Below are positions 24,491 through 56,778 of a stretch of DNA of 64,000 nucleotides, piece by piece. The stretch is from a virus: the IMG/VR virus record IMGVR_UViG_3300023178_001963; one strand, 5' to 3'. Every line of letters begins with the position of its first letter. The stretch's first letter is position 1. The translations under genes were made by a program, and so were the position numbers. The notes under the pieces are model-generated. The model did no database searches and was not told the DNA's origin. It saw only the letters and a program-made list of their open reading frames with translations.

Positions 24491-24855
24491 CCAAGACTGA
24501 ATTAATAAAGTATTTGAATGATAATACTAAAGGCAGGAAAGCTGGCAGGAAAGAGTTTAAAATAAACGATATCTTTATTAGTTCATCACAAAATAATAAA
24601 AACTTCAGACTAACACGTTTCGGAAAAGATGTATTAGTAAAGCATTTCAGCGAATATGAAATCAAACTCGCAACTGAACTTAAGCAAGAAACAGGCAATC
24701 AAATAATGAACTTAGATAGATATATGGTTTCCCCATACTATCTGAGTCGTGGCAAACTAGTCATATTTGAAGAGTCACTAGCAGCAGAATTCATGCTATT
24801 AGGAAATGACTTTGACTTATGGATAGAAAATAAAAAATTCACTTCAAAAACTTGA
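24487..24855 (+). CDS. hypothetical protein
   Basis: 122 aa, FRLTRFG, LDRYMVSPYY. Confidence 0.6.
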   Translation: MTKTELIKYLNDNTKGRKAGRKEFKINDIFISSSQNNKNFRLTRFGKDVLVKHFSEYEIKLATELKQETGNQIMNLDRYMVSPYYLSRGKLVIFEESLAAEFMLLGNDFDLWIENKKFTSKT

Positions 24856-24891
24856 CATAACTTACGAATCACGTTATATTAATATAGTAAT
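24852..24891 (+). promoter_or_regulatory. early promoter with CGAATC spacer motif
   Basis: TTGACA(24852)..CGAATC(24865)-4nt-TATATT(24875)-6nt-GTAAT. Confidence 0.8.
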
Positions 24892-24904
24892 AAGGAGATA
24901 AGTT

Positions 24905-25090
24905 ATGGATAAAATCTACTTGATAATTGATAACGCATCTAACAAGCTAGTCGCTAAAGAAAGCGATTACGGTAATGCTTGTGAGCTTGCTTGTGCCCTA
25001 GACGAAATCTCCTGGGATGAAAACGGACACGGTCGTAATCTTTCTATTATTTTAGAAAGCAGTTTTGATATTTCAAAACTTGACAACTAA
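24905..25090 (+). CDS. small hypothetical early protein
   Basis: 61 aa after AAGGAG SD. Confidence 0.55.
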   Translation: MDKIYLIIDNASNKLVAKESDYGNACELACALDEISWDENGHGRNLSIILESSFDISKLDN

Positions 25091-25118
25091 GCGAATCGTG
25101 TTATACTTATTAAGTAAT
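25080..25118 (+). promoter_or_regulatory. early promoter with CGAATC spacer motif
   Basis: TTGACA(25080)..CGAATC(25092)-4nt-TATACT(25102)-6nt-GTAAT. Confidence 0.8.
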
Positions 25119-25140
25119 CAATAGAGAGAAAGGTTCTCAA

Positions 25141-26268
25141 ATGTCTCAAGTTTCACTAAATGATATGGATGTTCGTCTAGTTCGTCCTAGTGATATTCGT
25201 GCAGAAATCAACTACGCTATGAATCGTAAGCGTCCGGTCTTCATCTGGGGTCCTCCCGGTATTGGTAAGTCTGAGATTGTTGATTCAATCACACAAGAGC
25301 GTTCAGGCTACATGATTGACATGCGGCTTGCGCTAATGGAACCCACTGACTTGCGTGGTATTCCTGTTCCTAACACTAACACAGGCTTGATGGAGTGGCT
25401 TCCTCCTGCTGATTTGCCTACTCAAGAATTAGCAGATCAATTCGAATGCGTTGTTCTGTTTCTTGATGAAATGAATCAGGCTCCTCAGTCTGTACAAGCT
25501 GCTGCTTATCAGCTAATTCTTAATCGTCGGTTGGGTAACTATCGTCTTCCTGACAATGTTCTAATCGTTGCTGCTGGCAATCGTGAAAGTGATCGTGGCG
25601 TTGCGTATCGTATGCCTAGCCCGCTTGCTAATCGTTTTGTTCATCTTGAAATGACTACTGATTTTGAAGATTGGCAGACTTGGGCATTACAAAACAATAT
25701 CGATCCTGAGGTCGTAGGTTATGTAACTGCTAACAAGATGGATCTTATGAACTTTGATCCTCGCACTGCGTCACGGGCGTTTGCTACTCCTCGTTCATGG
25801 ACTTTTGTTTCTCAGATGCTTCCTCAAGAAGGTGAGCAAATCTCAGACAGTCGTTTACATGATTTGATTGCAGGTACTGTTGGTGATGGTATCGCAACTA
25901 AGTTCATGGCACACCGAGCAATTGCTGGTAAACTGCCTAATCCGACAGATATCTTGTCAGGTAAAGTAAAGACACTGGGTTCAGAAGCAAGCGAAATTTC
26001 TGCGATGTTCTCATTAACTGCTTCACTTTGTTATGAGTTGAAGGACTTTGTTGATCGTAATGGTAAAGAGAAAATGGACGAGTTGTACAAAATGGCTGAC
26101 AACTTCTTCAACTTTATGATGGATAACTTTGAAACAGAAATGACCGTACTTGGTGGTCGTACTGCACTGAAAGTTTACAAACTTCCTCTTGAACCTCGCA
26201 AAGTTCCCTGCATTGAAAAGTTCTTTAAGAAGTATGGCAAACTAATCATTGATGCACACAACGCATAA
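25141..26268 (+). CDS. MoxR-like AAA+ ATPase
   Basis: Walker A GPPGIGKS, Walker B LFLDEMN, AAGNR, PLANRF, TPRSW. Confidence 0.9.
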   Translation: MSQVSLNDMDVRLVRPSDIRAEINYAMNRKRPVFIWGPPGIGKSEIVDSITQERSGYMIDMRLALMEPTDLRGIPVPNTNTGLMEWLPPADLPTQELADQFECVVLFLDEMNQAPQSVQAAAYQLILNRRLGNYRLPDNVLIVAAGNRESDRGVAYRMPSPLANRFVHLEMTTDFEDWQTWALQNNIDPEVVGYVTANKMDLMNFDPRTASRAFATPRSWTFVSQMLPQEGEQISDSRLHDLIAGTVGDGIATKFMAHRAIAGKLPNPTDILSGKVKTLGSEASEISAMFSLTASLCYELKDFVDRNGKEKMDELYKMADNFFNFMMDNFETEMTVLGGRTALKVYKLPLEPRKVPCIEKFFKKYGKLIIDAHNA

Positions 26269-26287
26269 GGGGAGCATTGCTCCCTTT
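26267..26287 (+). terminator. probable terminator hairpin
   Basis: AAGGGGAGC-ATT-GCTCCCTTT. Confidence 0.55.
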
Positions 26288-26293
26288 AATTAC

Positions 26294-26321
26294 TTGACAC
26301 TATCTAAATATGTGTTATATT
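26294..26321 (+). promoter_or_regulatory. sigma70-type promoter
   Basis: TTGACA(26294)-16-TATATT(26316) with TG extension; no CGAATC. Confidence 0.6.
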
Positions 26322-26352
26322 AGTAGAGTAGTTAGAAAAAAGGACGAATCAC

Positions 26353-27690
26353 ATGCAAGTCAAACCTCATGAAATTAAATCAGAAGATGATTTTAACGCA
26401 GTACTTGATGATATTCTGAAAGAAAACGGTATCGAAGTAGACGAAGATTCTGCTGAACCTGTAGTATTCGAATACACTGATTTAGAAGTCAAAGAAATGA
26501 TTGTATCGGGTCGTGTGAGAATGCTAATCAAACACCCGTTCTTTGGTACACTTGCTACTCGTCTTAAACTAGTCGAGGCTGAATGGCTTCCTACTGCTGC
26601 TGTTGACGGCAAGCATTTCTACTACAATTGTGACTTCTTTCGTACTCTAACACCTGAGGAAATCGACTTCGTTGTAGGACACGAGGTCTTTCACTGTGTA
26701 TATGATCACTGCGGTGTAGGTGGTCGTCTTATGGACTTTACTGAAGAAAAGCGTGATCCTAAACTGTGGAACATTGCTGCTGACTACAAAGTTAATCAGG
26801 CTACAGTAGAAGCGAAAATCGGTACTATGCCTAAGTCTGCGCTGTATGATCGTAAATACTACAAGTCTTATACAGAAGAAATTTACGCAGACCTACTAGA
26901 ACAAAAAGAACAAGGTAAAGATTTCTCTAACACTGAAACACTTGATGAACACATGTTTGGTGATGGTGAAGGTCAAGGTAGCGACGGTGAAAATGATCCT
27001 ACTGGACGCAATGCTCCTATCAAAATTTCTAAAGAAGAAGCTAAAGCAATCAAGGATCAGATGAAACAAGCTGTTCTACAGGCTGCACAGTCTGCGGGTT
27101 CTGGCAATCTTCCCGGTGATATCAAGCGTATCATTAAAGATATGACTGAACCTAAAATGGACTGGCGTGAACATCTTAATCTTTCAATGCAGTCTGCACT
27201 AAAATCAGATTTTACTTGGATGCGTCAATCTCGTAAGTCACGTTCACTAGGTATCTATCTACCAGGTATGGATAATGAGTATCAAGTTGAGGCTGCTATC
27301 GGTATTGATGTTTCAGGTTCTATTTCACATGACATGATTCGTGACTTTCTAGGTGAAATCTACGGCATCATGCAACAGTTTCAAGATTTTCGTCTCCGTA
27401 TTTGGACTTTTGATACACAAGTATACGCAGATTCATTTAAAGAATTCACTCCTATGAATGCTGAGGAAATCAAAGAATACGAAATTATCGGCTGTGGTGG
27501 TACTGACTTTGAATGTAATTGGAACTTCATGGAAGAAAACGATATTCAACCTGACAAGTTCATCATGTTCACAGATGGTTATCCGTTTGGTTCATGGGGT
27601 AATCCAAACTATTGTGACACATTGTTTGTTATTCATGGATCAGATCATATCATCCCACCGTTTGGAGAGCATACTTACTACTCCAAATAA
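26353..27690 (+). CDS. DUF2201-type metallopeptidase-VWA protein
   Basis: TAAVDG, HEVFH (HExxH), WNIAADY, MIDAS DVSGS, GGTDF, FTDG. Confidence 0.85.
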   Translation: MQVKPHEIKSEDDFNAVLDDILKENGIEVDEDSAEPVVFEYTDLEVKEMIVSGRVRMLIKHPFFGTLATRLKLVEAEWLPTAAVDGKHFYYNCDFFRTLTPEEIDFVVGHEVFHCVYDHCGVGGRLMDFTEEKRDPKLWNIAADYKVNQATVEAKIGTMPKSALYDRKYYKSYTEEIYADLLEQKEQGKDFSNTETLDEHMFGDGEGQGSDGENDPTGRNAPIKISKEEAKAIKDQMKQAVLQAAQSAGSGNLPGDIKRIIKDMTEPKMDWREHLNLSMQSALKSDFTWMRQSRKSRSLGIYLPGMDNEYQVEAAIGIDVSGSISHDMIRDFLGEIYGIMQQFQDFRLRIWTFDTQVYADSFKEFTPMNAEEIKEYEIIGCGGTDFECNWNFMEENDIQPDKFIMFTDGYPFGSWGNPNYCDTLFVIHGSDHIIPPFGEHTYYSK

Positions 27691-27693
27691 AGA

Positions 27694-27700
27694 ATAAATA
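27694..27700 (+). promoter_or_regulatory. T4-like late promoter core ATAAATA
   Basis: 5 nt before ATG 27706. Confidence 0.55.
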
Positions 27701-27705
27701 ACTAT

Positions 27706-28248
27706 ATGAGTAATGACACCTTATTGCTAAATGCCAATGGGTCACCACTCAGTGTGACTCCGCTTTCCACGCTAACGTGGCAGGAAAGTATCAAACTCAT
27801 TTGGCTCGATAAAATCAATGTATTAGAATGGCATGATGAATGGGAAGTACATAGTGTTAACCATACACTACAAGTACCATCTGTTGTATCTGTAAAAGAA
27901 TATGTGCCACAGACAGGTGCAGTGAACTTTACAAGAAACAATATTTTTATACGTGATAAATGGACATGTCAGTACTGTCATACCCAGTTTAAAAACTCAG
28001 AATTAACATTAGACCATGTACTACCAAAATCAAAAGGTGGTAAAACAACATGGGAAAATATTGTAACAGCATGTAAAAAATGCAATCACAGTAAAGGAAA
28101 TAAAACACATATTCTTCCAAAGAAAATGCCTAGTAAACCAAACTTCTATCAATTGTATAATAATAAAAACTTTATGATACATATTAGATATGAGATTTGG
28201 TTAAAATACCTAAACTGGCCAGAAGAATATGTACAAATGGCAGTGTAA
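27706..28248 (+). CDS. HNH endonuclease
   Basis: RDKWTCQYC...TLDHVLPKSKGG...WENIVTACKKCNHSKG. Confidence 0.9.
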   Translation: MSNDTLLLNANGSPLSVTPLSTLTWQESIKLIWLDKINVLEWHDEWEVHSVNHTLQVPSVVSVKEYVPQTGAVNFTRNNIFIRDKWTCQYCHTQFKNSELTLDHVLPKSKGGKTTWENIVTACKKCNHSKGNKTHILPKKMPSKPNFYQLYNNKNFMIHIRYEIWLKYLNWPEEYVQMAV

Positions 28249-28254
28249 AAACAC

Positions 28255-28283
28255 TTGACACTCATCCCAAAATAAGATATAAT
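28255..28283 (+). promoter_or_regulatory. consensus sigma70 promoter
   Basis: TTGACA(28255)-17-TATAAT(28278); downstream TATGAATAA/TTATTCATA hairpin. Confidence 0.75.
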
Positions 28284-28349
28284 AGTAGGTATGAATAACT
28301 GTTTATTCATATTATATATAATATGACATAAGAAATAAAGGAGTTTTAA

Positions 28350-28601
28350 ATGTCAGAAGAAACCCAAGCTGTAGAAGAGGCAGCTACAACAGAACAACCT
28401 AGCGTCACAGTAAATGACCTAGCGAATGTTTATGCTATTATCGATCTAGCATCAAAACGAGGAGCATTTCAAGCATCAGAACTTTCTGCTGTAGGTAATG
28501 TTGCTAACAGAGTTAAAGCATTTGTTGACTTTGTACAAGCACAAAACGCAGAAAATGCTGAAGCAGAAGGCGAAGCAACTGAAGAGGCTTCGGAGTCATA
28601 A
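28350..28601 (+). CDS. conserved phage hypothetical protein
   Basis: IIDLASKRGAFQASELSAVG; AAGGAG SD. Confidence 0.65.
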   Translation: MSEETQAVEEAATTEQPSVTVNDLANVYAIIDLASKRGAFQASELSAVGNVANRVKAFVDFVQAQNAENAEAEGEATEEASES

Positions 28602-29240
28602 ATGGCTAAGTTTCTTAAACATGTAGGTAGACATGATGGAACTGGACAACGTTTAAGTACAGTGTTCATGCAACTACCTGATGAAAAAGACTATGCTTTA
28701 GTTGTTTATAGTGATTCATTACCAGATCGATACCATGATGCTTACATGGAAGCTATTGAATCACCAGAAGGGCAAGCAACAAATAACTTGTATGAAGTTC
28801 TTACACGTAAAGTATTTTGGCATGGTACACCTATGCTAGAAACACTTCACAAAGAAGGCCATCTTAAAAAACTTCCAACAAATTCTATTATTATGACACC
28901 TAATTCAAATACTAACGTTAGGCTATCAGAAATTTTAGAACAAATGGATCAGGTTGATTCAGATACCCCGGCGCCAGTAGAAGAGGTACCAGCATCAGCA
29001 CCATCACAGGTAGATGCTAATGTAGAAGATTCAAAAAAGGACGAAAATCGTGCTATTGCTCAAAATCTAATGGTTCAAGCTAATTTACTTGAACAGGATG
29101 CAATCGCAAAACGTGAAGAAGCATACAAATATGATCCTTCATTGCGTCCATCTGAAGCAAAGCCTAAGGTTCGTGTAACAACAAAAGCAAAAACAGACGC
29201 ACCAAAGAAACGTGGTCGTCCAAAGAAGTCGGAGGCTTAA
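28602..29240 (+). CDS. hypothetical protein
   Basis: LKHVG start; C-terminal AT-hook-like KKRGRPKK. Confidence 0.6.
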   Translation: MAKFLKHVGRHDGTGQRLSTVFMQLPDEKDYALVVYSDSLPDRYHDAYMEAIESPEGQATNNLYEVLTRKVFWHGTPMLETLHKEGHLKKLPTNSIIMTPNSNTNVRLSEILEQMDQVDSDTPAPVEEVPASAPSQVDANVEDSKKDENRAIAQNLMVQANLLEQDAIAKREEAYKYDPSLRPSEAKPKVRVTTKAKTDAPKKRGRPKKSEA

Positions 29241-29513
29241 ATGTCAAGTAAGCGTAGTAGTATATTAAGTAGAATTGAACAGGAGCGTATACGCCAGGCA
29301 GATATCCCTGGTAGTGAATGGGATGCTAAAAACAAACCAAATGATTGGATTGCAATCGCTTCTTATTATCTTGTACAAGAAACTAAACGTGCTACTATGC
29401 TTACTCCTCCATCCACAACCGATTTTGAAAGTGAACTTATTAAGTCGGCAGCAGTTATTCTAGCAGCGTTAGAACACGTTGAAGTAATGAAAGAAAATGG
29501 TGATCTAAGCTGA
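29241..29513 (+). CDS. hypothetical protein, possibly MazG-like helical fold
   Basis: ERIRQ...W...DW...ELIKSAAVILAALE pattern. Confidence 0.4.
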   Translation: MSSKRSSILSRIEQERIRQADIPGSEWDAKNKPNDWIAIASYYLVQETKRATMLTPPSTTDFESELIKSAAVILAALEHVEVMKENGDLS

Positions 29514-29830
29514 TGAAGTTTGATAGAGAAAATGAGTTTGATAGAATTATGGAAGAAATACTTCCTCTTAGTATACCAGCATCATATGTAAAAACTATCG
29601 TAGTTAAAATGAGAAATGGTTCGGTAATCTATCTATCGGGAGAAGAGTTACTAAATCCGCTCCCAATGTCAGGAGACTTTAGTTGGTCAGAAGTTGCTAA
29701 AAACTTTGAAGCAATTGATGATGTTGAAGTATTAGTAGACATACCAGAATTACGTGATAGCGTAATTAAAAATGTTAAAAATATTTTAAAGAAACATTTT
29801 GACAGTTATAAAGGCGATGATAATGATTAG
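29513..29830 (+). CDS. hypothetical protein
   Basis: 105 aa, coupled start/stop. Confidence 0.55.
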   Translation: MKFDRENEFDRIMEEILPLSIPASYVKTIVVKMRNGSVIYLSGEELLNPLPMSGDFSWSEVAKNFEAIDDVEVLVDIPELRDSVIKNVKNILKKHFDSYKGDDND

Positions 29831-30335
29831 TATGTTGTTGTCTGTTGACAAGAACAACGGTATAGGATATAAAAATGGGATGCCATGGCCTATCAGTGAT
29901 TCATACCAACACTACTTAAATTCAACATTAAAAGATAATGTTGTTATTATGGGATCTAAATCTTGGCAAAGATTTAGATCAATCCCAAAGACACAATCAT
30001 ATGTAATAACAACAAAAGATATATCCAACTTCCCTGGAGTATTCGATTGCTATGATTATACGGCACATACTATGCGTGATATATTAGATGCGATTGATTT
30101 TAGACATCCAGGCAAATCTAAAATAATAGTTGGCGGAGCAACATTATTCGAACAATGTCATAATATGTGTGATATAATTTATTATTGTAAAGTACAAGGT
30201 TCCTATAAATGTGACAGAACATTAGATACTGGTAACTATTTTCATGGATACAGAAAAGAGTACGAAAGAGTATTATACGGTAATAGACACAATCCAACAG
30301 TTAACGCAGAAAGATGGAGTAGAAAAAAAGTATGA
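29823..30335 (+). CDS. dihydrofolate reductase (divergent)
   Basis: VDKNNGIGYKNGMPW, VIMGSKSW, IVGGATLF, CD; immediately upstream of thyA. Confidence 0.8.
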   Translation: MISMLLSVDKNNGIGYKNGMPWPISDSYQHYLNSTLKDNVVIMGSKSWQRFRSIPKTQSYVITTKDISNFPGVFDCYDYTAHTMRDILDAIDFRHPGKSKIIVGGATLFEQCHNMCDIIYYCKVQGSYKCDRTLDTGNYFHGYRKEYERVLYGNRHNPTVNAERWSRKKV

Positions 30336-31213
30336 ACACTTCTGAAGAAATGTATTTAGACTTACTTCACACAGTGATGGAAAAAGGCGAAGAACGTGAC
30401 AAGGAGCGAACTGGCGTAGGCACAAAATCTATTTTTATGTCAATGCTAAACTTTGATTTTAAAGATGGATTCCCACTTTTAACTACAAAGAAAGTCCCAT
30501 TCAAATCTGTACTAAGTGAACTGCTTTGGTTCATTGAAGGATCCACAGATGAACGCAGATTAGCAGAAATACATTATGGTACAACATCTGGTAACATAAT
30601 GGACAAAAAAACTATCTGGACAGCCAATGCTGATAATCAAGGTAAAGAATTAGGTTACATCAATACAGCATTAACAAAGCATCTAGGACCTGTGTACGGA
30701 AAGCAATGGAGACGCTGGGAGAAGCCAGAGGGCGGGCATATAGATCAACTAGCTAACTTGATTGAGAATATAAAAACCAATCCACAATCACGTAGACATA
30801 TTCTTTCTGCTTGGAATGTAGCAGATATCGACAAGATGGCATTACCACCATGTCACACATTCTCACAATTTTATGTTAATAATAATGGAGAACTAAGCTG
30901 CAATCTGTATCAACGTAGTGCTGATTTATTCTTGGGCGTGCCGTTCAACATTGCGTCATACTCACTATTAACACATATGATTGCACAAGTATGTGAACTT
31001 AAAGTGGGAGAGTTTTTTCACACTATCGGTGATGCTCACATTTATATGAACCATATAGATGCGGTTAAGGAGCAATTAGAAAGAGAACCAAATGATTATC
31101 CAAATTTGGTAATCAATCCAGATATTAAATCAATTGACGATTTCAAAATGAATGATTTTGAAATTAAAGACTATAACAGTCATGGGACTATCAAAGCGGA
31201 TATGGCAGTATGA
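30332..31213 (+). CDS. thyA: thymidylate synthase
   Basis: RTGVGT, FPLLTTKK, ELLWF, LGPVYGKQWR, MALPPCH, YQRSADLFLGVPFNIASY, GDAHIY. Confidence 0.97.
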   Translation: MNTSEEMYLDLLHTVMEKGEERDKERTGVGTKSIFMSMLNFDFKDGFPLLTTKKVPFKSVLSELLWFIEGSTDERRLAEIHYGTTSGNIMDKKTIWTANADNQGKELGYINTALTKHLGPVYGKQWRRWEKPEGGHIDQLANLIENIKTNPQSRRHILSAWNVADIDKMALPPCHTFSQFYVNNNGELSCNLYQRSADLFLGVPFNIASYSLLTHMIAQVCELKVGEFFHTIGDAHIYMNHIDAVKEQLEREPNDYPNLVINPDIKSIDDFKMNDFEIKDYNSHGTIKADMAV

Positions 31214-31839
31214 GTTTTGACTTCTTAACATTAACAGCATATGGTGATCAAATAGAATTAAAGCCAACTATAGATGGAAAGAAGTTTGTTCGCTGGTCAG
31301 AAGACAACTTCAAGTATGTTAGATATAATCCAAGACACGATGTTAATCGTTGGGGGTTAAGTATAACTAGTTTAGATGGTGGGCTTAGTGGTGTACCAGA
31401 TTTAGATAGCCTACATCAATATAATATAGAAAACAATACTAGTCATGCTGAAACAGACTTTGATGTAGTCACACCAGTTTACGAACAATATAAAGAACTT
31501 CAACAAATTATTGAACCATGGAAAAATTACATGTTTCGTTCACATGTAATCAGATTAGGCCCGGGAGGTTTTTTCCCACCACACCGTGACACATATCATT
31601 ATGATATCAATACTTTTAGATTAATTGTTCCATTACACAATTGTAACCCACCAAATGTTTTCTTCAACTTAGAAGAAAACGCAATGCATTGGGAACAGGG
31701 ACGTATGTACTTTCTTAATACAACTAAAGTACATACCCTTTTTAATGCTAGTTTTGATAATAGTTACTGGATTGTTTTTAACATAAAATGTAATAAAGAT
31801 TCGGTAAACGCTGTTTTGAGAAACTTAAAACAAAATTAG
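31210..31839 (+). CDS. 2OG-Fe(II) oxygenase (AspH-like)
   Basis: FFPPHRD (HxD), HTLFN distal His, jelly-roll pattern. Confidence 0.7.
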   Translation: MSFDFLTLTAYGDQIELKPTIDGKKFVRWSEDNFKYVRYNPRHDVNRWGLSITSLDGGLSGVPDLDSLHQYNIENNTSHAETDFDVVTPVYEQYKELQQIIEPWKNYMFRSHVIRLGPGGFFPPHRDTYHYDINTFRLIVPLHNCNPPNVFFNLEENAMHWEQGRMYFLNTTKVHTLFNASFDNSYWIVFNIKCNKDSVNAVLRNLKQN

Positions 31840-32948
31840 ACTTTTCTCTTTGGTATTTTACTATCGGCTGAACTTACACAACTTTTGCTAATACAAGGCA
31901 TCGGTTTATCAAATAGTTTAAATCCACTCTCAATATATCCTAATGGTTGATCTGCACAACTATATGAACGTTTGATGGATCCGTCAGGTTCACGTATAAT
32001 AATTCCTTGATATCCACTGTTACAACTCCATCCTTCAAAATTATTAAAGTTAAAAGCATTGAAACGTTCTGCTTGGTCCATATACCACTTCTTACCTTTT
32101 GAATCAGTGAACTCTACCTGCATATGCCATGGAACGCTTTTATCATTTTCACCAATAGCGTACTGTGGCATTTCAAATGTAGGCTTCGGTCTACCCTCCC
32201 ATTTTCTTTTTACTTCAGTATAAGCCATTTGAGGCATACCATTCCACAAACGCTTCATTTGTTCTTCTGTATATCCTTCAACAACTTTTGACGCTGTTGG
32301 GTCACTTTGGGGTTTGAGGGTAACGTTGATTCCTTGCTCGTGGAAGAAAAGAGCATTTTCCCAATCTTTTTCAAACCACTCGGGAACCATGACCATGTTG
32401 ATTGTAATCTGTACATCGTGTTCCTGACACAGGATTAATTTGTCTGCAAATTCCTGCATCTTCTCCTTCGTGTCTAAATGCTCTGTATGTAAACTTGCTG
32501 TAATACTTGCTCTATGAAAAGGTTTCGCTCTTTCCACATAATCCTCAAACCACTTAAGTGGGCGAGAACAATTACTAGTCATATGTATACTAGTATAGTT
32601 AGTATTAGGAACATCATCAGCCAAATGGCCCAGTATGTCCAAGTATCCAGGGTGGAAGGTAGGCTCGCCCCCACTAAGACTAAAGTGAAAACTATTAAAT
32701 CCATTATCACGTGCTTGCCTCTTTATTTCATCTACTGTTGCTAGACACAACTCTGTTGGTCTGTGATCTTTTCTGTCACTTCTGGCATAGGGCCAGCAAT
32801 AACTACATCTATAGTTACAGAAGCGTCCAAGTAACCATGACACTGTAAATAAGTCACGGTAAAGTAATGTACGCTGTCCTACTTGTACTAAATCATCAAA
32901 AGGTATTTTAGTAAAGTCATACTCACTCCATTTTAAGTCTTCACTCAT
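31836..32948 (-). CDS. radical SAM protein
   Basis: CNYRCSYC, SGGEPT, C-terminal Cys cluster; start likely MSEDLK at 32948. Confidence 0.88.
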   Translation of the reverse strand: MSEDLKWSEYDFTKIPFDDLVQVGQRTLLYRDLFTVSWLLGRFCNYRCSYCWPYARSDRKDHRPTELCLATVDEIKRQARDNGFNSFHFSLSGGEPTFHPGYLDILGHLADDVPNTNYTSIHMTSNCSRPLKWFEDYVERAKPFHRASITASLHTEHLDTKEKMQEFADKLILCQEHDVQITINMVMVPEWFEKDWENALFFHEQGINVTLKPQSDPTASKVVEGYTEEQMKRLWNGMPQMAYTEVKRKWEGRPKPTFEMPQYAIGENDKSVPWHMQVEFTDSKGKKWYMDQAERFNAFNFNNFEGWSCNSGYQGIIIREPDGSIKRSYSCADQPLGYIESGFKLFDKPMPCISKSCVSSADSKIPKRKV

Positions 32949-34521: not shown

Positions 34522-34533
34522 TATGTATTCTCT

Positions 34534-41441: not shown

Positions 41442-41446
41442 GCTTA

Positions 41447-41476: not shown

Positions 41477-41481
41477 ACAGT

Positions 41482-45634: not shown

Positions 45635-45659
45635 TGTATTATATACTCACTTAATTATG

Positions 45660-48884: not shown

Positions 48885-50191
48885 TACTTGTAACCTATTT
48901 TCATAAATCTCTTATATTGTGGTAATACTAATTCACCTTCGAATAGAGTTTCTTTCATTTTTACGCTTTTACTAAACTGCTTTAGTGTTTTAAAAGAATT
49001 TACATGTTCTTCAATATCTACAAAATTATTATTCTGAAGTATAATTAATTTTCCATCTGGTATATTATTATACCATTCATCAAAGTTTTCAATATGTTCA
49101 CTACTTGTGTTAATTATAGTATCAGGATTGTCTTTAAGTTTTACAACAGCATCATTTGCAATCGTTTCATAATACATATTACCGATAGAACCGTCGCTAG
49201 GTGCTGGGTTTTTTGACCATTTGAATTTCATAATATCTAATGTACTTGCCTTAAAACGCCAATCTTCTAATAACCATTTCTTATTAAATGTCTCTGCTAT
49301 GTTAGCACAAGTAGGATCAATATCAAAACTTCTTATCTTTTCAATCTTAATTCCGCTTTCAAATAACATTGTAGCAAGCGTACCATACCATCCTGCGCAT
49401 AGGAATACTATTCCTAAATCTACATCTAATTTAGAAACTTCTTCAACTAACCACATCTTACTTTTTATCTGACCTCTACTCAAACAATCAGTATTGATTT
49501 CTATATCATTCAAATAAAAATATTTTAAAGCATCCACAAATTGTACGTCTTTATATCTTTTGATAATATCCCACAATTTGTTGGTATTATCTTCTAAAAG
49601 TAATTTACGCAAATCATGGTCTTCTAATAATCTAAAGACACTATGTAAGTTTTTTTCTAATACTGCTTTTCTTAAATCATCTGTTTTTCTATCATCAGTA
49701 TCTACAAATCTAAAAATACTATGTACATTCTTATCACACACGCTGTTTTTTAAACCAGAATAATAGTCAGGTAATAATCTAAACAAACTATATAAATTGT
49801 CCTCTGCCACCGCCTTTTTTAAATCTTCTAGTTTATTATAATGTTTTTCTTCTTCTAATAGTCTGAAAATACTTCTTATATTTTTTTCAATAACTGCTTT
49901 TCTAAGTTCATCGAACTGCGCAGGTAATAGTCTAAAAATACTGTGTCTATTTTCTTCTACAACTGCTTTACGCAGGTCATCATAATCATCTGGAAGTAAT
50001 CTAAAAATACTATGCAGATTTTCTTCAATAACAGCTTTGCGCAATTCGTCTGCATATAAGTTAGTTTTTTCTAATAGTTTGAATATACTAGACATATCTT
50101 TATCAATATATGCCCGTCTAAGTAGAGGAAATTCTTCTACTTCAGGATATAGTATTTCAAATCTATCTAATAATTCAAAAGTTTCTAACAT
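48884..50191 (-). CDS. methyltransferase-like protein with N-terminal helical repeats
   Basis: SKMWL, FLCAGWYG, IRSFDIDP, INTSSEH; repeats DxLRKAVxExNxHSIFRLL. Confidence 0.6.
   Translation of the reverse strand: MLETFELLDRFEILYPEVEEFPLLRRAYIDKDMSSIFKLLEKTNLYADELRKAVIEENLHSIFRLLPDDYDDLRKAVVEENRHSIFRLLPAQFDELRKAVIEKNIRSIFRLLEEEKHYNKLEDLKKAVAEDNLYSLFRLLPDYYSGLKNSVCDKNVHSIFRFVDTDDRKTDDLRKAVLEKNLHSVFRLLEDHDLRKLLLEDNTNKLWDIIKRYKDVQFVDALKYFYLNDIEINTDCLSRGQIKSKMWLVEEVSKLDVDLGIVFLCAGWYGTLATMLFESGIKIEKIRSFDIDPTCANIAETFNKKWLLEDWRFKASTLDIMKFKWSKNPAPSDGSIGNMYYETIANDAVVKLKDNPDTIINTSSEHIENFDEWYNNIPDGKLIILQNNNFVDIEEHVNSFKTLKQFSKSVKMKETLFEGELVLPQYKRFMKIGYK
49560..50125 (-). repeat. about 8 tandem ~23-aa coding repeats (DDLRKAVxEENxHSIFRLL)
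   Basis: Visible in the translation of 48884..50191. Confidence 0.8.
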
Positions 50192-51132
50192 TATTTGTAT
50201 CCTATTTTCATAAAGTAATATTTTTTATCGACTTGTATAACACCAGTATATACTTCGTAGTTCATTTCAAACTTACGATTGAATGCTTGTGAGCTGGAGA
50301 ATGGTCTTGGTACATCACCAGTTTCACCGACTACAACTACTCTGCGCATATCTGGTATCATATCCCACCATGCTTCATATTTTTCTAAGTAACTAATATT
50401 AGGATTGATCAAAGTTCCAGGTATTTCTTTGAATGGGTTAGATATAGTACCGTCTGGAAGAACAGTAGAGAATACATTTTCATCATAACCAATATTAAAT
50501 ATATCTTGTGTTGTTGCCTTAAATCTCCAATCTTGTAATAATTCATTTGACATCATTTCATCAGCCAAAAACTGTCCAGATCCGTGAATATCAAAAGAAC
50601 GAATATTTTCAAACCTAAGTTTCGTGTCTAGCATCATGGCACCCAGTAACCCCATGCCGCCGCCTAATAGATACACAGTACCGATATACTTTTCTCCAAA
50701 TGAATGGAACAAATGTTGAATAATCCATGTGTTAATTCTAGCACTTTCTTTTGTTAAGAAAGAACCCATATCGACATTGGGGAAGTGATAGATAATCTTT
50801 TTTAATCTATCCGAAAGATTATCTTTATCTTGTGGCGTATAATAAGTTAAAAAGTCCATAGCACTACGATAGTTACCTAATTGTTGAGCAACATTAACTT
50901 GTGAATACTGTTCTACCATTTCTTGGTAATTATAATGTTCTAAAAGCGGAGTACCGATAACTTCAGGAAAATTTTCTGCTATAGTTATTGTAGCTCCTGC
51001 TGCTGCACTCTCTGTTTCATCTTCTATAGTAAGCGTTGGATCTACTCCTACACTATCATATAGGTCTTGATTTGATTTGACTGATGTTTTTCTACGTCTG
51101 TTTTTATCAATCATTCTAATTTTTTTAACCAT
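50191..51132 (-). CDS. methyltransferase-like protein, paralogue of the downstream gene
   Basis: YLLGGGMG, IRSFDI, DWRFKATT, FMKIGYK shared with 48884..50191. Confidence 0.6.
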   Translation of the reverse strand: MVKKIRMIDKNRRRKTSVKSNQDLYDSVGVDPTLTIEDETESAAAGATITIAENFPEVIGTPLLEHYNYQEMVEQYSQVNVAQQLGNYRSAMDFLTYYTPQDKDNLSDRLKKIIYHFPNVDMGSFLTKESARINTWIIQHLFHSFGEKYIGTVYLLGGGMGLLGAMMLDTKLRFENIRSFDIHGSGQFLADEMMSNELLQDWRFKATTQDIFNIGYDENVFSTVLPDGTISNPFKEIPGTLINPNISYLEKYEAWWDMIPDMRRVVVVGETGDVPRPFSSSQAFNRKFEMNYEVYTGVIQVDKKYYFMKIGYK

Positions 51133-52225
51133 TGTTTTCTTCCTTGAACTTTGTTTTTAACCAATCAAAATCATTTATAAGATTTAATTTATCTTGTTGG
51201 TTGTGAAATTTCTCACCATATTGTTTTCCAGAGTTTGCTCCCAATAAAGCAAATTCGCCCATGTGTCTGTCTTTTCCCACAGTACACCAAGTATCTAATC
51301 TAGTATTATTTTCTTCTTCTACACTACGATTAATAATATTACTACTTAGCTTAACACATTCTCTAAAAGCACTCTTCCAAGTATTAAACGGATCAGTGTT
51401 AAATGTAGTATAGTTGGATACTGCATCCATAATTCTGAATTTATCTGATATTGACGTAGTAAAATCTATGTTCCAATGGGTTGCTTGACGTAACAATTTA
51501 GTTGGAAATAGTTTCACGCCGCCATAACCATATTCTAAATCATTGATCGGATTACGAGATTTCCAAACATGTACTGTTTCTCTATCCCATGGATCAGCAT
51601 AATAATCAAATTCAAAATCCTCTACTATCTCAGCGTCTGCATCTACGACATAAAACATATCAGTTTCTACTATCTCAGATGCTACCTTGTGAGCATTAAA
51701 AATACCCTTAACACCACGAACTCTTTTTGCGTCTGGTTCCTTTTCTAAAAGTTTATGGTAATTTTCATCAGCAAAAGGTTCATTATAACTCAAATAAACA
51801 ATATCATATTTTTTATCAACTGTAACATAATGAACATTACTTTTGTGTTCTTTGTAATGTCCTTTTTTAAAATACAAACTGTTATCAAAATCATCTAAGT
51901 CATAATTTTTGTGTATAAGTTTAACCCCAATAGACATTGAATAGTTATTTCTTAGATCCGTATACCAAACATGTGATAACTTATTATCCCAAACTTCAGG
52001 GATCATGTTCCAATTAAAATCATCGTTGACTTGTGTTTCAGGATCAATCACCCACATATATTCTGTATTACTCAACTTTTGTATTTTGGTCACTGCTTCT
52101 TTTATTTGATTGTTATCTGAAATTTTAACCATGCGAACATTAGGCATTTTTTCCCTAATACGTTTGTACTTTGAAAATTCTTCTTTGCAATAATCAAGTG
52201 TTATAAAAAAACAATCGTAAGCCAT
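51125..52225 (-). CDS. glycosyltransferase-like protein with duplicated GT-A-type domain
   Basis: YD(C/I)(F/V)...MWVIDPE / MFYVVDADA, HVW, GVKL repeated twice; WKSAFRECVKL. Confidence 0.6.
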   Translation of the reverse strand: MAYDCFFITLDYCKEEFSKYKRIREKMPNVRMVKISDNNQIKEAVTKIQKLSNTEYMWVIDPETQVNDDFNWNMIPEVWDNKLSHVWYTDLRNNYSMSIGVKLIHKNYDLDDFDNSLYFKKGHYKEHKSNVHYVTVDKKYDIVYLSYNEPFADENYHKLLEKEPDAKRVRGVKGIFNAHKVASEIVETDMFYVVDADAEIVEDFEFDYYADPWDRETVHVWKSRNPINDLEYGYGGVKLFPTKLLRQATHWNIDFTTSISDKFRIMDAVSNYTTFNTDPFNTWKSAFRECVKLSSNIINRSVEEENNTRLDTWCTVGKDRHMGEFALLGANSGKQYGEKFHNQQDKLNLINDFDWLKTKFKEENNG

Positions 52226-52248
52226 AATTATCCATATATCTTTAACGT

Positions 52249-52277
52249 ATTATAACATATTAATCGTCACTTGTAAA
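52249..52277 (-). promoter_or_regulatory. sigma70-type promoter (minus strand)
   Basis: TTTACA-17-TATAAT upstream of ATG 52225. Confidence 0.5.
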
Positions 52278-53795
52278 CACCGAAATACCATAATGTTTGG
52301 CAAAATCTTCAGCATCCTTTTCATCATTTACTATTGGTTGTCCCTTTATGTTTAATGATGTATTGACTAACATCGGACATCCTGTTTCTTTTTTGAACTT
52401 ATATAGTAATTCATATAGCTCAGGATGTTGGTCATGTCTTACAGTCTGTACACGTGATGTTCCGTCTTTGTGAATGATAGCAGGTAATTCATCAGGATAT
52501 TTACATTCAGCAACAAACTGCATATATGGGCTTTCTGTCACATTTTTTGGCATGTAAAAATAATCATTTACGTCTTCTTCTAAAATCATCGGTGCAAAAG
52601 GTCTAAACTTTTGTCTGCGTTTGATTTCATTCATACGGTCTTTAATATCATCACCACGTGGGTCTGCTGTTAATGTACGATTGCCTAGCGCACGTGGACC
52701 GAACTCTGCTCTTCCGTTTGCTATACCAACAATCTCACCACGTAATAATGCTGCTAATGCTTTCTCTACTGGATATGATCCTTTAATCTCATGTCCTAAA
52801 TAAGGTGTTTCCCAATGAATACGATTATTAAAATATTTTTGTGTAGCGCCGATACAAGAACCTGCATCACCTGGGTTAGGCATGATCCATATATTTCTAA
52901 ATGCTGCTGTGATTTTAGAGTTAGCACTACAGTTTAGCGCACAGCCTCCCATAATTATTATGTTTGTACTAAGAGACATATTTCTAGCTGTATATACAAT
53001 ACGCTCCAACATATGTTCATACACCAATTGAGTTGCGGCAGCTATATCAAACAAGTCTTGTTCTTCTTGTAGTTCTTCTAAAAACCAACGACAACCTCTA
53101 TGTAGATTTTCTTTAAATGATATTAATTTGAATACTTCTCCGCTGCGGTCTTCTAACTTAATACCAAAATCATCCATTAAATGTTGTACTAAAGTTTTTC
53201 CATTATGTCTGCGATACGGATCACCATACGCTGCCATACCCATAAGAATGTATTCGTCTTCTTGTGGCTTTAGTCCTAGTCGCTGTGTCATAGCTGAATA
53301 GAAAAGACCTACACTGTTAGGATAATCCTGAGAATATAGTTTTTCCAGTTTGTCTCCTCGACCACGCCAGATACTAAGAGTTTCAAATTCACCTATAGAA
53401 TCAATAACAACGACAGCCGCTTCCGCAAGTTTACTTGTGTAATAACCAGAGGCAGCATGTGTGTAATGATGCGATTGATATTCAATTTTGATACCTGCTA
53501 ACTGTGGGAACTTTTTCTTAATATAACGCTTGGGCATTTCGTCCCAATCAAATACAAAATCCCATTGTTGTGCTGTTGCTTGTCTAAATTTCTTTAGTAG
53601 AGGTTTTTCATACCAAGCAATAACATCTGGTTTACCATACGATAACGCAGCATTTATAATCGCATCATTTAGCAGTGGATCGTTTTTAATCTTACTGTAG
53701 CGTTCACTATGTGAAGCATATAATATGCGACCATCTTCAACAACTGATACTGCCGCATCGTGGTTTAACGCACCGCTAATTCCCATAACTCTCAT
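52260..53795 (-). CDS. carbamoyltransferase (NodU/CmcH/TobZ family)
   Basis: HDAAV, SERYSKIKND, HHYTHAAS, MGGCALNC, PGDAG, EFGPRALGNR, FRPFAP, DGTSRVQTV, NTSLN. Confidence 0.93.
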   Translation of the reverse strand: MRVMGISGALNHDAAVSVVEDGRILYASHSERYSKIKNDPLLNDAIINAALSYGKPDVIAWYEKPLLKKFRQATAQQWDFVFDWDEMPKRYIKKKFPQLAGIKIEYQSHHYTHAASGYYTSKLAEAAVVVIDSIGEFETLSIWRGRGDKLEKLYSQDYPNSVGLFYSAMTQRLGLKPQEDEYILMGMAAYGDPYRRHNGKTLVQHLMDDFGIKLEDRSGEVFKLISFKENLHRGCRWFLEELQEEQDLFDIAAATQLVYEHMLERIVYTARNMSLSTNIIIMGGCALNCSANSKITAAFRNIWIMPNPGDAGSCIGATQKYFNNRIHWETPYLGHEIKGSYPVEKALAALLRGEIVGIANGRAEFGPRALGNRTLTADPRGDDIKDRMNEIKRRQKFRPFAPMILEEDVNDYFYMPKNVTESPYMQFVAECKYPDELPAIIHKDGTSRVQTVRHDQHPELYELLYKFKKETGCPMLVNTSLNIKGQPIVNDEKDAEDFAKHYGISVFTSDD

Positions 53796-53804
53796 AGGTA
53801 ACTC

Positions 53805-53918
53805 CTATTTGTAAATGAAAGGATCTCTCTTACGAAGTTCTTCCATTTTCTTCTTTAGCTGCTTTTTTCTTTTATACTCGACAAAAGGCCAAGTTATGAT
53901 TTCCCAAAGTGTTTTCAT
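53805..53918 (-). CDS. 37-aa basic peptide (MKTLWEIITWPFVEYKRKKQLKKKMEELRKRDPFIYK)
   Basis: Read manually; ATG overlaps the upstream TAA; fills the gap between the SGNH gene and the carbamoyltransferase. Confidence 0.6.
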   Translation of the reverse strand: MKTLWEIITWPFVEYKRKKQLKKKMEELRKRDPFIYK

Positions 53919-54649
53919 TATCCGTTTCCTGATCTTGTTCTTTCTATATCATCAAATAATATTTTTGCCCAACCATTATGTGCTTCTTTGTTTGGATGCA
54001 TATACCTTTCGTCGCCCTCTTTATCATAGTATAACTCATTATCATACATATATGTAAAGAATGTTTGTTGTTCATATAATCTAGTCATATCTATTTGCGC
54101 CATAACATTTGTCATTTCTGTTTGCTCACAAATTTCTGAAAAGATTGTAGGATCAATCAAGTTAGGTGTAAGATTTAGTGAATTAAAAATTACATATTCT
54201 AAATCAGCATTCTTAAAAAAGTTTTGAAGTGTTAAAACATTTATAAGATATTGATGGAAGTCATATGTTGGACTCCAAAAATGCTTCATGTATAAAGAAT
54301 TTAACAATGCCAATTCTTTATTAGTTTCTTCTTCGAGTCTAATGTTACCATGATATTCCGGTGACGGTATATTATGAACTAGTAGATTTTTATCTTCTAT
54401 AAAATGCTCTCTTCTGCTAGGAGCAGTCATACCTATAGCACAAAAAGGCTTCTTACCTTCTTGTAGAAAATCACTCACAGTTTTAATTGTTGTTCTTACA
54501 ATATATGTATTAGAAACGCCTCTGTCTGCTTCTGTGACAGTTTCATCTCTATCAAACCCTAACATCTCTGCTAGTTCATAAGGCCATGCAGTTTCTTTAT
54601 CTGCTAGTCCAGTTCCATATGTAAAGCTACATCCATTTGCGTATAACAT
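53918..54649 (-). CDS. SGNH/GDSL-like protein
   Basis: YANGCSFTYG, GVSN, MHPNKEAH. Confidence 0.65.
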   Translation of the reverse strand: MLYANGCSFTYGTGLADKETAWPYELAEMLGFDRDETVTEADRGVSNTYIVRTTIKTVSDFLQEGKKPFCAIGMTAPSRREHFIEDKNLLVHNIPSPEYHGNIRLEEETNKELALLNSLYMKHFWSPTYDFHQYLINVLTLQNFFKNADLEYVIFNSLNLTPNLIDPTIFSEICEQTEMTNVMAQIDMTRLYEQQTFFTYMYDNELYYDKEGDERYMHPNKEAHNGWAKILFDDIERTRSGNG

Positions 54650-54675
54650 TCAAGTATCCTTTTTAACTTCGTACT

Positions 54676-54682
54676 TATTTAT
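54676..54682 (-). promoter_or_regulatory. late promoter core ATAAATA (minus strand)
   Basis: AGATAAATA upstream of the 54649 start, heading the minus-strand block. Confidence 0.5.
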
Positions 54683-54692
54683 CTTTAAAAAC

Positions 54693-54731
54693 TTGACATA
54701 TCCACGAATCATGCTATATTAATTATGTAAT
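54693..54731 (+). promoter_or_regulatory. early promoter with CGAATC spacer motif
   Basis: TTGACA(54693)..CGAATC(54705)-4nt-TATATT(54715)-6nt-GTAAT. Confidence 0.8.
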
Positions 54732-54750
54732 CAAAGAGAAGGACTTAGTT

Positions 54751-55050
54751 ATGCAAGCAGTAGAACATAAAACATATGAAGCATATGTAGCGTACAATAC
54801 AGCACGTGGTTACGGTTATATTCCCGAAAACTTATACAATGCCATTAAAGAGCAAGAGTTAAGCACATTCAATCAGTTCTATAACGATATGATCTGGACT
54901 GCTACTGAGCCTGCTAACAAGAACAAAGACGGTACTATTAACTGGAACTTTGTTGATAGCGATATGTACATGAAATGGGGAGTGTTGCTTGACGGTGAAC
55001 TGTATACTGAATACTTTGAAAAAGCTGCAGACATTATAGAAGGTAAATAA
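54751..55050 (+). CDS. hypothetical early protein
   Basis: 99 aa; NKDGTINWNFVDSDMY. Confidence 0.6.
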   Translation: MQAVEHKTYEAYVAYNTARGYGYIPENLYNAIKEQELSTFNQFYNDMIWTATEPANKNKDGTINWNFVDSDMYMKWGVLLDGELYTEYFEKAADIIEGK

Positions 55051-55052
55051 AC

Positions 55053-56027
55053 ATGAAAAAATTCGTAGCATTAAGTTTATTAAGTCTTAGTGTATTAGGT
55101 TGTTCGCCTGATACTTCTACCATACAACAAGAAAAGCCAACAGGTGTTAATCAAAATATAGGACAAATACTTATGGCAGATAGCAAGTATGGCAACATAT
55201 TTGTTGAGAGAAATGTTGCCAAAAGTAAAGCATTTAAAATGGTAGAACATCAGGGTGAAATTGCTGCTAGAATACATCTTAGTACCTCTATGGGAGGTGC
55301 ACGTGATGATTGGTATCGTAATGGTGTAGGCGGTTTTGGACAACGTTTTGAATATGGACAACGAAAAGAAACGGCACAGCGTTTTAATAAAGAGATTTGG
55401 ACACGAATTGTTTTTTGGTTACCCAAAGGTACTGTAGCAGACGCACCTGCTACAATCTTTGATTTAAAAGAAATACGAAATAATCAAACATTCGGTCCCC
55501 TATTAAATCTTTCAGTTCGAGGTGAAGGTCTTACTATAAAACATCAGTTTAAAGAAAATGACTGTATTATTGGACGTGACGGTGACGGCGAGAATTCATT
55601 CTGTGATAAGACAGATACAATGGTATTCTTGGGTGGAACACAGCGTTATACTGGACGTTGGGTAGAATATGTAAGCCGTGCTGTTTGGTCAAATGATACT
55701 AATGGTGTATACGATGCTTGGATAGATGGTAGAAAGGTTATCGGTTATCGTGGCAATACATCATTTGGTGCTGATAGAATTGCATTTAAGTTTGGTCTAT
55801 ATCGTATTCGTATGAATGAATTTAATACCGTAAGAGACCTAGAAATATACTTTAGCAAAGTAGGCACAGCAGGTACATGTGAAACATTAGAAATAACAAA
55901 CTGTGACTCATTATATAGAACTCAAAATGTAATGGGATACCCATCAGCTACTAAAGTTTTTGAATTCGAAATGAACCAAAAAACAGATTTCATTAACAGT
56001 GGCGGGCGTGTATTAAAACGGTTTTAA
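55053..56027 (+). CDS. lipoprotein with polysaccharide lyase-like beta-jelly-roll domain
   Basis: Lipobox VLGC; QRFE, GRWVE...WS...GVYDAWIDG, FKFGLYR. Confidence 0.6.
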   Translation: MKKFVALSLLSLSVLGCSPDTSTIQQEKPTGVNQNIGQILMADSKYGNIFVERNVAKSKAFKMVEHQGEIAARIHLSTSMGGARDDWYRNGVGGFGQRFEYGQRKETAQRFNKEIWTRIVFWLPKGTVADAPATIFDLKEIRNNQTFGPLLNLSVRGEGLTIKHQFKENDCIIGRDGDGENSFCDKTDTMVFLGGTQRYTGRWVEYVSRAVWSNDTNGVYDAWIDGRKVIGYRGNTSFGADRIAFKFGLYRIRMNEFNTVRDLEIYFSKVGTAGTCETLEITNCDSLYRTQNVMGYPSATKVFEFEMNQKTDFINSGGRVLKRF

Positions 56028-56030
56028 AAC

Positions 56031-56070
56031 TTGACAGATCCTGCGAATCACTATATATTATATATGTAAT
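56031..56070 (+). promoter_or_regulatory. early promoter with CGAATC spacer motif
   Basis: TTGACA(56031)..CGAATC(56044)-4nt-TATATT(56054)-6nt-GTAAT. Confidence 0.8.
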
Positions 56071-56088
56071 TGAGAGAAAGGTGACAAT

Positions 56089-56340
56089 ATGTTTCGTATC
56101 CCAGCTTTTAACAAATTTGATATGACTTTTGAAGAAGCAAAAGTGACTATGACACATTATGGTCGTGGCGACTTGCTTGAAGGCATGATGGCTATGGATC
56201 GTGTTTGGGAAGAACACTGCGCAAGTTATGGCAGTGACAATGCTCGTTTTGATAGTGACAGTGACTTCTACGAATGGTATGAAGCAGAAGTGAATGCTTA
56301 CAACAAAGTGTTCGAAACAATGAAACCTTTATTCGCATAA
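56089..56340 (+). CDS. hypothetical early protein
   Basis: 83 aa after GAAAGG SD. Confidence 0.6.
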   Translation: MFRIPAFNKFDMTFEEAKVTMTHYGRGDLLEGMMAMDRVWEEHCASYGSDNARFDSDSDFYEWYEAEVNAYNKVFETMKPLFA

Positions 56341-56350
56341 GGAGAGAGAT

Positions 56351-56545
56351 ATGCAGACAATTTATCGGGATTCACCAAACGGAAACGCTTTCTACATCTT
56401 AGGTGTAGCAGTTCAGTTGATGAAAGATTTAGGTTATGCTTCGCAAGATGCCGAAGCTGTGCTTGACGAAATGAAGTCAGGTGACTATGAGGATCTTGTT
56501 TCTGTTTTTAATCAAACATTCTGTGACTATGCGGAGGTAGTGTAA
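56351..56545 (+). CDS. hypothetical early protein
   Basis: PNGNAFYILG...EMKSGDYEDL, small conserved phage-type protein; AAGGAG SD. Confidence 0.6.
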   Translation: MQTIYRDSPNGNAFYILGVAVQLMKDLGYASQDAEAVLDEMKSGDYEDLVSVFNQTFCDYAEVV

Positions 56546-56736
56546 TGAATATAGACTTTAATAAAATTGATAATGTAGAAGTAGCATGTATTGACATGGC
56601 AGACTATCCTGACTTCTGCGATGCGTATATCGAAAGCTGTGACATTGATGGTGTTCCTGCTACTGAGGAAGAACTAGATGCTATCAATGATAATGGTGAC
56701 TTTGTTGCTGAGTGTGTATGGGATGCAATCTACTAA
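56545..56736 (+). CDS. hypothetical acidic early protein
   Basis: IDMADYPDFCDAYIES. Confidence 0.6.
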   Translation: MNIDFNKIDNVEVACIDMADYPDFCDAYIESCDIDGVPATEEELDAINDNGDFVAECVWDAIY

Positions 56737-56739
56737 AAC

Positions 56740-56778
56740 TTGACAAGATAGCGAATCGTGCTATATTAATAGAGTAAT
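56740..56778 (+). promoter_or_regulatory. early promoter with CGAATC spacer motif
   Basis: TTGACA(56740)..CGAATC(56752)-4nt-TATATT(56762)-6nt-GTAAT. Confidence 0.8.

Follow-up and report, generated by a model that had tools for sequence, protein, structure and literature searches.

A probable GcrA-type methylation box in phage promoters

The GcrA/CcrM pair is the textbook epigenetic cell-cycle module of the Alphaproteobacteria, the most abundant marine bacteria. Herein, a 64,000-nucleotide stretch of viral DNA from IMG/VR record IMGVR_UViG_3300023178_001963 (the window) is analysed for five promoters, P1 to P5, that hold a GANTC sequence, the methylation site of CcrM, at a fixed position in their spacers. 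All five belong to a promoter class, strong and of sigma70 type, that is conserved among related uncultured marine phages of about 340 kb, and the GANTC box is a real, selected cis-element, for which recognition by GcrA of the host is, with moderate confidence, the best explanation. The motif bound by GcrA is TGATTCG or, more broadly, YGAKTCK, and in the promoters that it controls the motif clusters tightly around -20 (Haakonsen et al., PMC4647560). Wu et al. place the sites at -20 ± 1 and -30 ± 2, and the PcsM scaffold used for their cryo-EM work with GcrA reads TTGACA-N6-CG(m6A)ATC-N5-TATAAT on the non-template strand, with the box at -22 to -18 (PMC9976885). Furthermore, in the crystal structure all seven bases of TGATTCG contact GcrA, including the N7 of the box G (PMC5887438).

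Several other systems resemble the phage class in part. The T4 MotA/AsiA middle promoters likewise belong to a T4-related phage and are marked as a class by a fixed extra box beside a sigma70 -10 hexamer; the MotA box, however, replaces the -35 element at about -30, whereas the class described here keeps TTGACA, has its box at -22 to -16 and occurs without a MotA homologue. T4-type phages also possess promoter-early cassettes, in which an early promoter is repeated together with a stem-loop terminator. Promoters sensitive to Dam (GATC) methylation, such as those of P1 cre, Mu mom and IS10, also contain an adenine-methylation site and couple expression to replication or methylation state. There the site usually overlaps the -10, the -35 or a repressor site and no sigma-bound reader is involved; site and writer both differ from those of the phage class. 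Finally, CtrA boxes control phage genes in phages of Alphaproteobacteria, whose genomes were also scanned for GcrA sites without a positional signal (PMC9437464). In that case phage promoters are likewise wired to a host cell-cycle regulator, but regulator and site are different ones, and the clade considered here has no excess of CtrA boxes. In the library searched, no paper describes phage promoters with a GcrA box.

Five boxed promoters in one stretch of phage DNA

The window derives from a source record of 90,395 bp (35% G+C, judged 25% complete), from which it differs at 24 positions. All five promoters lie on the plus strand and share the layout AAAAC-TTGACA-N6/7-CGAATC-N4-TATAyT-N6-GTAAT, followed 3' by a short purine-rich leader, a Shine-Dalgarno sequence and ATG. 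P1 (24847..24891) consists of AAAAC, the -35 hexamer TTGACA (24852-57), N7, the box CGAATC-A (24865-71), N4, the -10 hexamer TATATT (24875-80), N6 and GTAAT (24887-91). P2 (25075..25118) has its -35 at 25080-85, N6, the box CGAATC-G at 25092-98, GTGT with the TG of an extended -10, the hexamer TATACT at 25102-07 and GTAAT at 25114-18. P3 (54688..54731) combines a -35 at 54693-98, N6, CGAATC-A at 54705-11, ATGC, TATATT at 54715-20 and GTAAT at 54727-31. In P4 (56026..56070) the same elements stand at 56031-36, then, after N7, at 56044-50 (CGAATC-A), 56054-59 (TATATT, preceded by ACTA) and 56066-70 (GTAAT). P5 (56735..56778), in turn, has its -35 at 56740-45, N6, CGAATC-G at 56752-58, GTGC, TATATT at 56762-67 and GTAAT at 56774-78.

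The distance from box to -10 hexamer is exactly 4 nt in all five, and the gap between -35 and box is 6 nt in P2, P3 and P5 and 7 nt in P1 and P4. The template-strand form of the box is TGATTCG in P1, P3 and P4 and CGATTCG in P2 and P5. The preliminary description had reported five promoters of this shared layout, with CGAATC 4 nt before the -10 and these two bottom-strand forms, and was borne out letter for letter. It had also stated that the sigma70 promoters at 4448, 8843, 14610, 26294 and 28255 lack the element, and indeed none of these five has a GANTC in its spacer.

The combination is far from what chance would produce. TTGACA-N6-8-CGAATC occurs five times in the window against 0.03 expected, and none of 100 shuffles reached five. 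Dropping the TTGACA requirement and searching for box plus -10 yielded only chance-like sites. Moreover, P1 to P5 are the best-scoring sigma70-like sites of their regions, with 11 of 12 consensus positions and spacers of 16-17 bp. Since GANTC as a whole is depleted in the window and the genome, the promoter boxes stand out against a depleted background.

The probable transcription start is a conserved G, seven bases 3' of the -10 hexamer (24887, 25114, 54727, 56066 and 56774 in P1 to P5). With this start GAATC would span -21 to -17, the centre of the box would lie at -19, and CGAATC-R would occupy -22 to -16 of the non-template strand. As a side observation, the presumed 5' end of the transcript is kept as (G/A)TA(A/G)TCA in the window (24887-24893, 25114-25120, 54727-54733, 56066-56072, 56774-56780) and in two large relatives (G001 and G002, described below), and is followed by an AGAGAGG-type leader; this conservation exceeds the needs of a start site. 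An additional CGAATCA stands at 26345-26351 (+), between the Shine-Dalgarno sequence and the ATG of a DUF2201/VWA-peptidase gene, about +19 from the box-less promoter at 26294, and is kept in G002. Across box-less promoters, GANTC between +1 and +35 occurs at the background rate (3 of 66).

Conservation of the box across a clade of giant phages

The window's record (G000) was compared with two near relatives, G001 (342,607 bp, with terminal repeats, 100% complete) and G002 (342,181 bp, 92% complete), to which the window is about 70-80% identical in conserved genes. The DNA polymerase is T4-like. Among cultured phages its closest counterparts are found in two jumbo phages, the Sinorhizobium phage Phosso (47.7%) and the Agrobacterium phage Atu_ph07 (45.7%); those infecting Xanthomonas, Vibrio, Erwinia and E. 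coli follow at about 41-42%. A near-identity search against cultured phages gave no match, and BLAST with the short promoter gave only chance hits. The pattern AAACTTGACA-N6/7-CGAATC-N4-TATA is present in more than 111 IMG/VR stretches, most of which come from the two lineages represented by G001 and G002. A complete S-adenosylmethionine (SAM) synthetase gene with all three MetK domains (16337-17416, +) adds to this picture: the 120 best matches listed for its product are all clade phage copies, at 83-98% identity in metagenomes, so the clade is large and widespread.

Exact TTGACA-N5-8-CGAATC sites number 11 in G001 and 25 in G002, all on one strand, and a reversed-pattern control found none; the boxed class as a whole amounts to about 13-25 copies per genome in these two. 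When the class was defined by -35, -10 and transcript start only, with the box left free, 190 unique instances were obtained, of which 145 carry GANTC at the exact box position (143 as GAATC and 2 as GATTC on the top strand) and about ten more carry it one base off. By the same box-free definition, the boxed share in unbiased whole genomes is 5/8, 13/17 and 23/31. Shared features of the class are a consensus -35, a 16- or 17-bp spacer, an often extended -10 and the transcript start RTARTCA.

Information content is close to zero in the N6/7 beside the -35 and highest in the box. In the orthologous promoters before the MoxR gene (window P2, G001, G002), the N6 reads ACTAAG, GAATCA and ATACAG, respectively, and the box CGAATC, AGAATC and CGAATC. 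As the spacer flank has diverged while the box has been kept, common descent or cassette copying alone is insufficient to explain the pattern, and the box is under selection.

Two variations within the class deserve mention. A sub-class in G002 (for example at 114714, 199951 and 329997 on the reverse complement) has a 17-bp spacer, no extended -10 and a -10 of TATAAC, TATAAA or TATACA, without the usual T at -7; being weak by E. coli rules, these may be the most activator-dependent promoters. In addition, four boxed promoters (G001 80842, 169063 and 337736; G002 reverse complement 303172) have a second GANTC directly 3' of the -35, as in TTGACA-GATTCG-AGAATC, at about ten times the chance rate.

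GcrA as the probable reader

The box agrees with known GcrA sites in flanks, strand and position. YGAKTCK is matched by 144 of the 145 clade boxes, although random GANTC sites would match in only about a quarter of cases, and the commonest form is the best site of GcrA, TGATTCG, on the template strand. Even the variant boxes, AGAATC-A, CGATTC-G and one TGATTC-G in G001, still conform to YGAKTCK, and the earlier statement that both window variants do so is correct for all five boxes (template YGATTCG). For GcrA-type promoters the box centre was expected at -20 ± 1, at -30 ± 2 or between +2 and +30. P1 to P5 combine sigma70 -35 and -10 elements and the preferred flanks with a box that, given the start assumed above, falls within -20 ± 1.

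Two properties of the class bear on the nature of the reader. Across the class the distance from box to -10 is fixed (N4) and that from box to -35 varies (N6 or N7), as one would expect if the reader, like GcrA, were bound to sigma domain 2. Furthermore, the strong strand asymmetry (143 GAATC against 2 GATTC) argues for an asymmetric protein reader rather than a symmetric mark alone. The likeness to the GcrA/CcrM promoters of Caulobacter crescentus, judged by sequence, extends to the sigma70 core, a YGAKTCK-flanked GANTC on the same strand and a centre within -20 ± 1; the PcsM promoter also has six bases between -35 hexamer and box, as do the N6 promoters of the phage. In contrast to PcsM, the phage box lies one base nearer the -10 (N4 instead of N5), and, whereas the Caulobacter hexamers are weaker, those of the phage are near-consensus. 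The phage element is, moreover, a class signature, repeated 13-25 times per phage genome.

The most likely mechanism would involve an alphaproteobacterial host in which GcrA accompanies sigma70 RNA polymerase by binding to sigma domain 2. Approaching the spacer from the side opposite the polymerase, the DNA-binding domain of GcrA would dock on the m6A-methylated GANTC box and thereby stabilise both the bound polymerase and the formation of the open complex. Transcripts that encode small acidic proteins, a MoxR ATPase and others, the first of the phage, would then be made from incoming methylated DNA by host proteins only. The host class, the methylation of the box and GcrA as its reader are each inferred at this point. 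The original suggestion that early phage genes are wired to GcrA therefore stands in so far as there is a selected element with a GcrA-like 7-mer, position, strand and -10 registration; it is weakened by the absence of the class from ten cultured alphaproteobacterial phages.

If this reading is true, a phage promoter class has been built on the best site of GcrA, in 13-25 copies per genome and throughout a widespread clade of marine giant phages, and this would be the first virus found to launch infection through a methylation-reading sigma cofactor. The box would then serve as a sequence-only host marker for uncultured phages, and the success of infection would be linked to the cell-cycle and methylation state of the host.

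A modest host signal in GANTC avoidance

An alphaproteobacterial host is suggested by the treatment of GANTC in the rest of the genome. The site is present at 0.54-0.56 of the expectation from base composition and at 0.64-0.67 of that from a third-order Markov model, ranking first or second among 16 gapped palindromes, and of all 5-mers GAATC/GATTC shows the strongest depletion in G000 and G002 and the second strongest in G001. Observed-to-expected ratios are 0.49-0.54 in coding and 0.83-1.13 in intergenic DNA, a gap that is due largely to the promoter boxes. Alphaproteobacteria that bear CcrM, which include SAR11, show at least 2-fold depletion of GANTC with relative intergenic enrichment (Gonzalez et al., PMC3973325).

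Calibration with the same Markov statistic gave 0.09-0.95 for ten cultured alphaproteobacterial phages, seven of which had GANTC at rank 1-3, and 0.82-1.22 for eight phages of other hosts (one-sided Mann-Whitney p = 0.0007, with samples that are small and related). The clade, at 0.64-0.67, lies below all eight of the latter and inside the alphaproteobacterial range. This suggests, as a modest signal, that it belongs with phages of CcrM-bearing Alphaproteobacteria. The host assignment of the preliminary description thus gains from an avoidance like that of such phages, and loses from the missing promoter class in ten cultured ones. Low G+C is no objection to such a host, since Atu_ph07 has 37%.

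Protein-based clues to the host were sparse. The clade copies among the listed SAM synthetase matches carry no taxonomy and give no host clue. A FliL (flagellar basal-body-associated) domain (7e-18) was observed in a 181-aa protein at 13467-14012 (+), a hint that the host has a flagellum, which would speak against SAR11, a non-motile group; the atlas neighbours of this protein place it only to the phylum Pseudomonadota. Among phages of SAR11 itself, Pelagibacter phage HTVC008M (NC_020484.1) has 43 GANTC sites in 147 kb (observed/expected 0.10-0.18), all 43 with G before or C after, every GANTC without such a flank having been purged, and HTVC019P has only six sites. This pattern suggests a 7-bp-specific selective agent in SAR11.

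Search for a phage-encoded reader or writer, and points against GcrA

A phage-borne GcrA, which the preliminary description had left as an option, finds no place in the gene content: neither GcrA (PF07750) nor a methylase of the CcrM/HinfI type (PF01555) was detected in the window's record and five relatives (G000-G005), the complete genome included. CcrM and M.HinfI, both GANTC methylases, are here presumed to be members of PF01555. Neither of two weak PF01555 hits in G001 is a DNA methylase: one is a radical-SAM enzyme, and the other resembles a sugar C-methyltransferase.

The only recognisable DNA methyltransferase in the window is a 191-aa protein of N6-adenine type-like character with motif IV NPPY (7587..8162, +; phrog_799 at 1.8e-32). 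Its gene lies directly 3' of the DNA polymerase gene, beside the polymerase and clamp genes, and is kept in G001 and G002 at 67-72% identity. It is absent from the cultured comparators, has its best cultured match in the marine podophage Lau218 (51%) and is not of the PF01555/CcrM type; it is a possible writer of the box mark. The phage further encodes GTP cyclohydrolase I and a phosphoribosyltransferase; Pfam did not bear out the rest of a 7-deazaguanine pathway.

A number of results weigh against GcrA as the reader. The transcription start and the early timing are both inferred, and the phage has a predicted NPPY methyltransferase of its own. GTP cyclohydrolase I raises a further difficulty: if guanines were converted to 7-deazaguanine, the contact of GcrA with N7 of the box G (PMC5887438) would be lost. 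Restriction of the HinfI/TfiI type (GANTC or GAWTC) in another host could equally give the avoidance, and G001 has lost other sites too, with 0 GCAGC/GCTGC observed against 203 expected and strong depletion of AGCTC, AGATC and CATCC. Outside promoters, depletion is slightly stronger for sites with GcrA-type flanks (0.54) than for the remaining sites (0.65), a difference too small to discriminate. CtrA boxes (TTAA-N7-TTAA) are neither clustered nor in excess over other spacings, and a scan of 185,579 bacterial genomes for the promoter word returned only four isolated matches, as many as chance would give, and no host clue. Finally, the boxed class is absent from all ten cultured alphaproteobacterial phages, Phosso having at most a weak excess with a handful of similar sites. 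Viewed by itself, the loss of GCAGC/GCTGC from G001 is classic restriction-site avoidance, specific to that lineage.

Alternative explanations

Of the alternatives, the one that survives best is a different reader of the box, either a phage protein, brought in with the DNA or synthesised very early, or a host factor if the host is not an alphaproteobacterium. Such a reader would activate the class or later shut it off, the match to the GcrA word being a coincidence. We regard this as unlikely, although cultured alphaproteobacterial phages without the boxed class, the precedent of T4 MotA/AsiA for phage factors that retarget sigma70 and the large share of clade genes without known function all speak for it. 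Such a coincidence would have to cover 7-mer, strand and position together. The first promoters on injected DNA logically cannot need a newly made phage protein, the open reading frames (ORFs) behind the promoters are acidic, and the perfect TTGACA implies that sigma region 4 is used normally. The MotA DNA-binding domain MotCF (PF09158) had no match in G000-G002, so that the MotA-like phage factor considered earlier lacks a candidate, and a MotA-type middle promoter is ruled out by this result and the consensus -35. With no phage reader detected and acidic ORFs downstream that do not resemble DNA binders, three candidates are left as the reader for the first transcripts: a protein of the host, one delivered by the virion, or RNA polymerase itself.

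A more elaborate form of the GcrA reading, which we hold to be speculative and rather improbable, would make the phage its own licensor. With SAM supplied by the phage synthetase, the NPPY methyltransferase (7587-8162), tethered to the clamp, would write m6A on the retained GANTC sites; packaged DNA would arrive pre-marked, and host GcrA-RNA polymerase would fire the boxed promoters immediately. Replicating copies with no mark or half a mark would fall silent, giving a self-contained epigenetic licence and an early-to-late switch tied to the cell-cycle stage of the host.

Still less probable is a methylation switch set by the same clamp-associated enzyme and sensed by RNA polymerase or DNA structure without GcrA, which would distinguish parental from new DNA. 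Such a switch would fit the conservation of the methyltransferase beside polymerase and clamp genes in the clade, the phage-encoded SAM synthetase and the methylatable A that GANTC offers on both strands; the enzyme nevertheless falls outside the CcrM/HinfI (PF01555) family, and strand asymmetry together with conserved flanks favours an asymmetric protein reader.

A box without any trans-acting reader, whether an intrinsic spacer element that tunes strength or a frozen promoter cassette spread by recombination like the promoter-early stem-loops of T4-type phages, is likewise very doubtful: the promoters are indeed repeated cassettes, often starting at the previous stop codon, and of 111 loci (L001-L111) 20 can be aligned to three reference genomes for no more than about 1-10% of their length, in most cases at about 90% identity, as would fit loci that share little beyond the promoter repeat. 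Yet the spacer flanks are randomised around a box that copying alone would not have kept, these genomes also contain box-less sigma70 promoters whose hexamers are just as good, no stem-loop terminators stand beside P1-P5, and we know of no sequence-specific 7-bp contact of RNA polymerase at -22 to -16. A T4-type promoter-early stem-loop cassette was accordingly rejected, the repeated promoters being present but without a convincing adjoining terminator.

Genes behind the promoters

The genes served by the five promoters are all on the plus strand. P1 is followed first by a 61-aa acidic ORF without a family (24905..25090), and P2 by a MoxR-like AAA+ ATPase (25141..26268; phrog_1297). Behind P3 lie a 99-aa acidic ORF (54751-55050) and a 324-aa polysaccharide-lyase-like protein (55053-56027), behind P4 three small acidic ORFs of 83, 64 and 63 aa (56089..56736), and behind P5 a 246-aa protein of phrog_2319, function unknown (56797..57537).

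The preliminary description had referred to these as the earliest genes of the phage, a status that would follow from the promoter type and the small acidic ORFs downstream. The small ORFs at 24905-25090, 56089-56736 and 28350-28601 are strongly acidic, with, for example, 18 D+E against 1 K+R in 63 aa. Genes for early host takeover typically have such a profile, which is unlike that of DNA binders, and the predicted products of the small ORFs behind boxed promoters resemble DNA-mimic or anti-defence early proteins.

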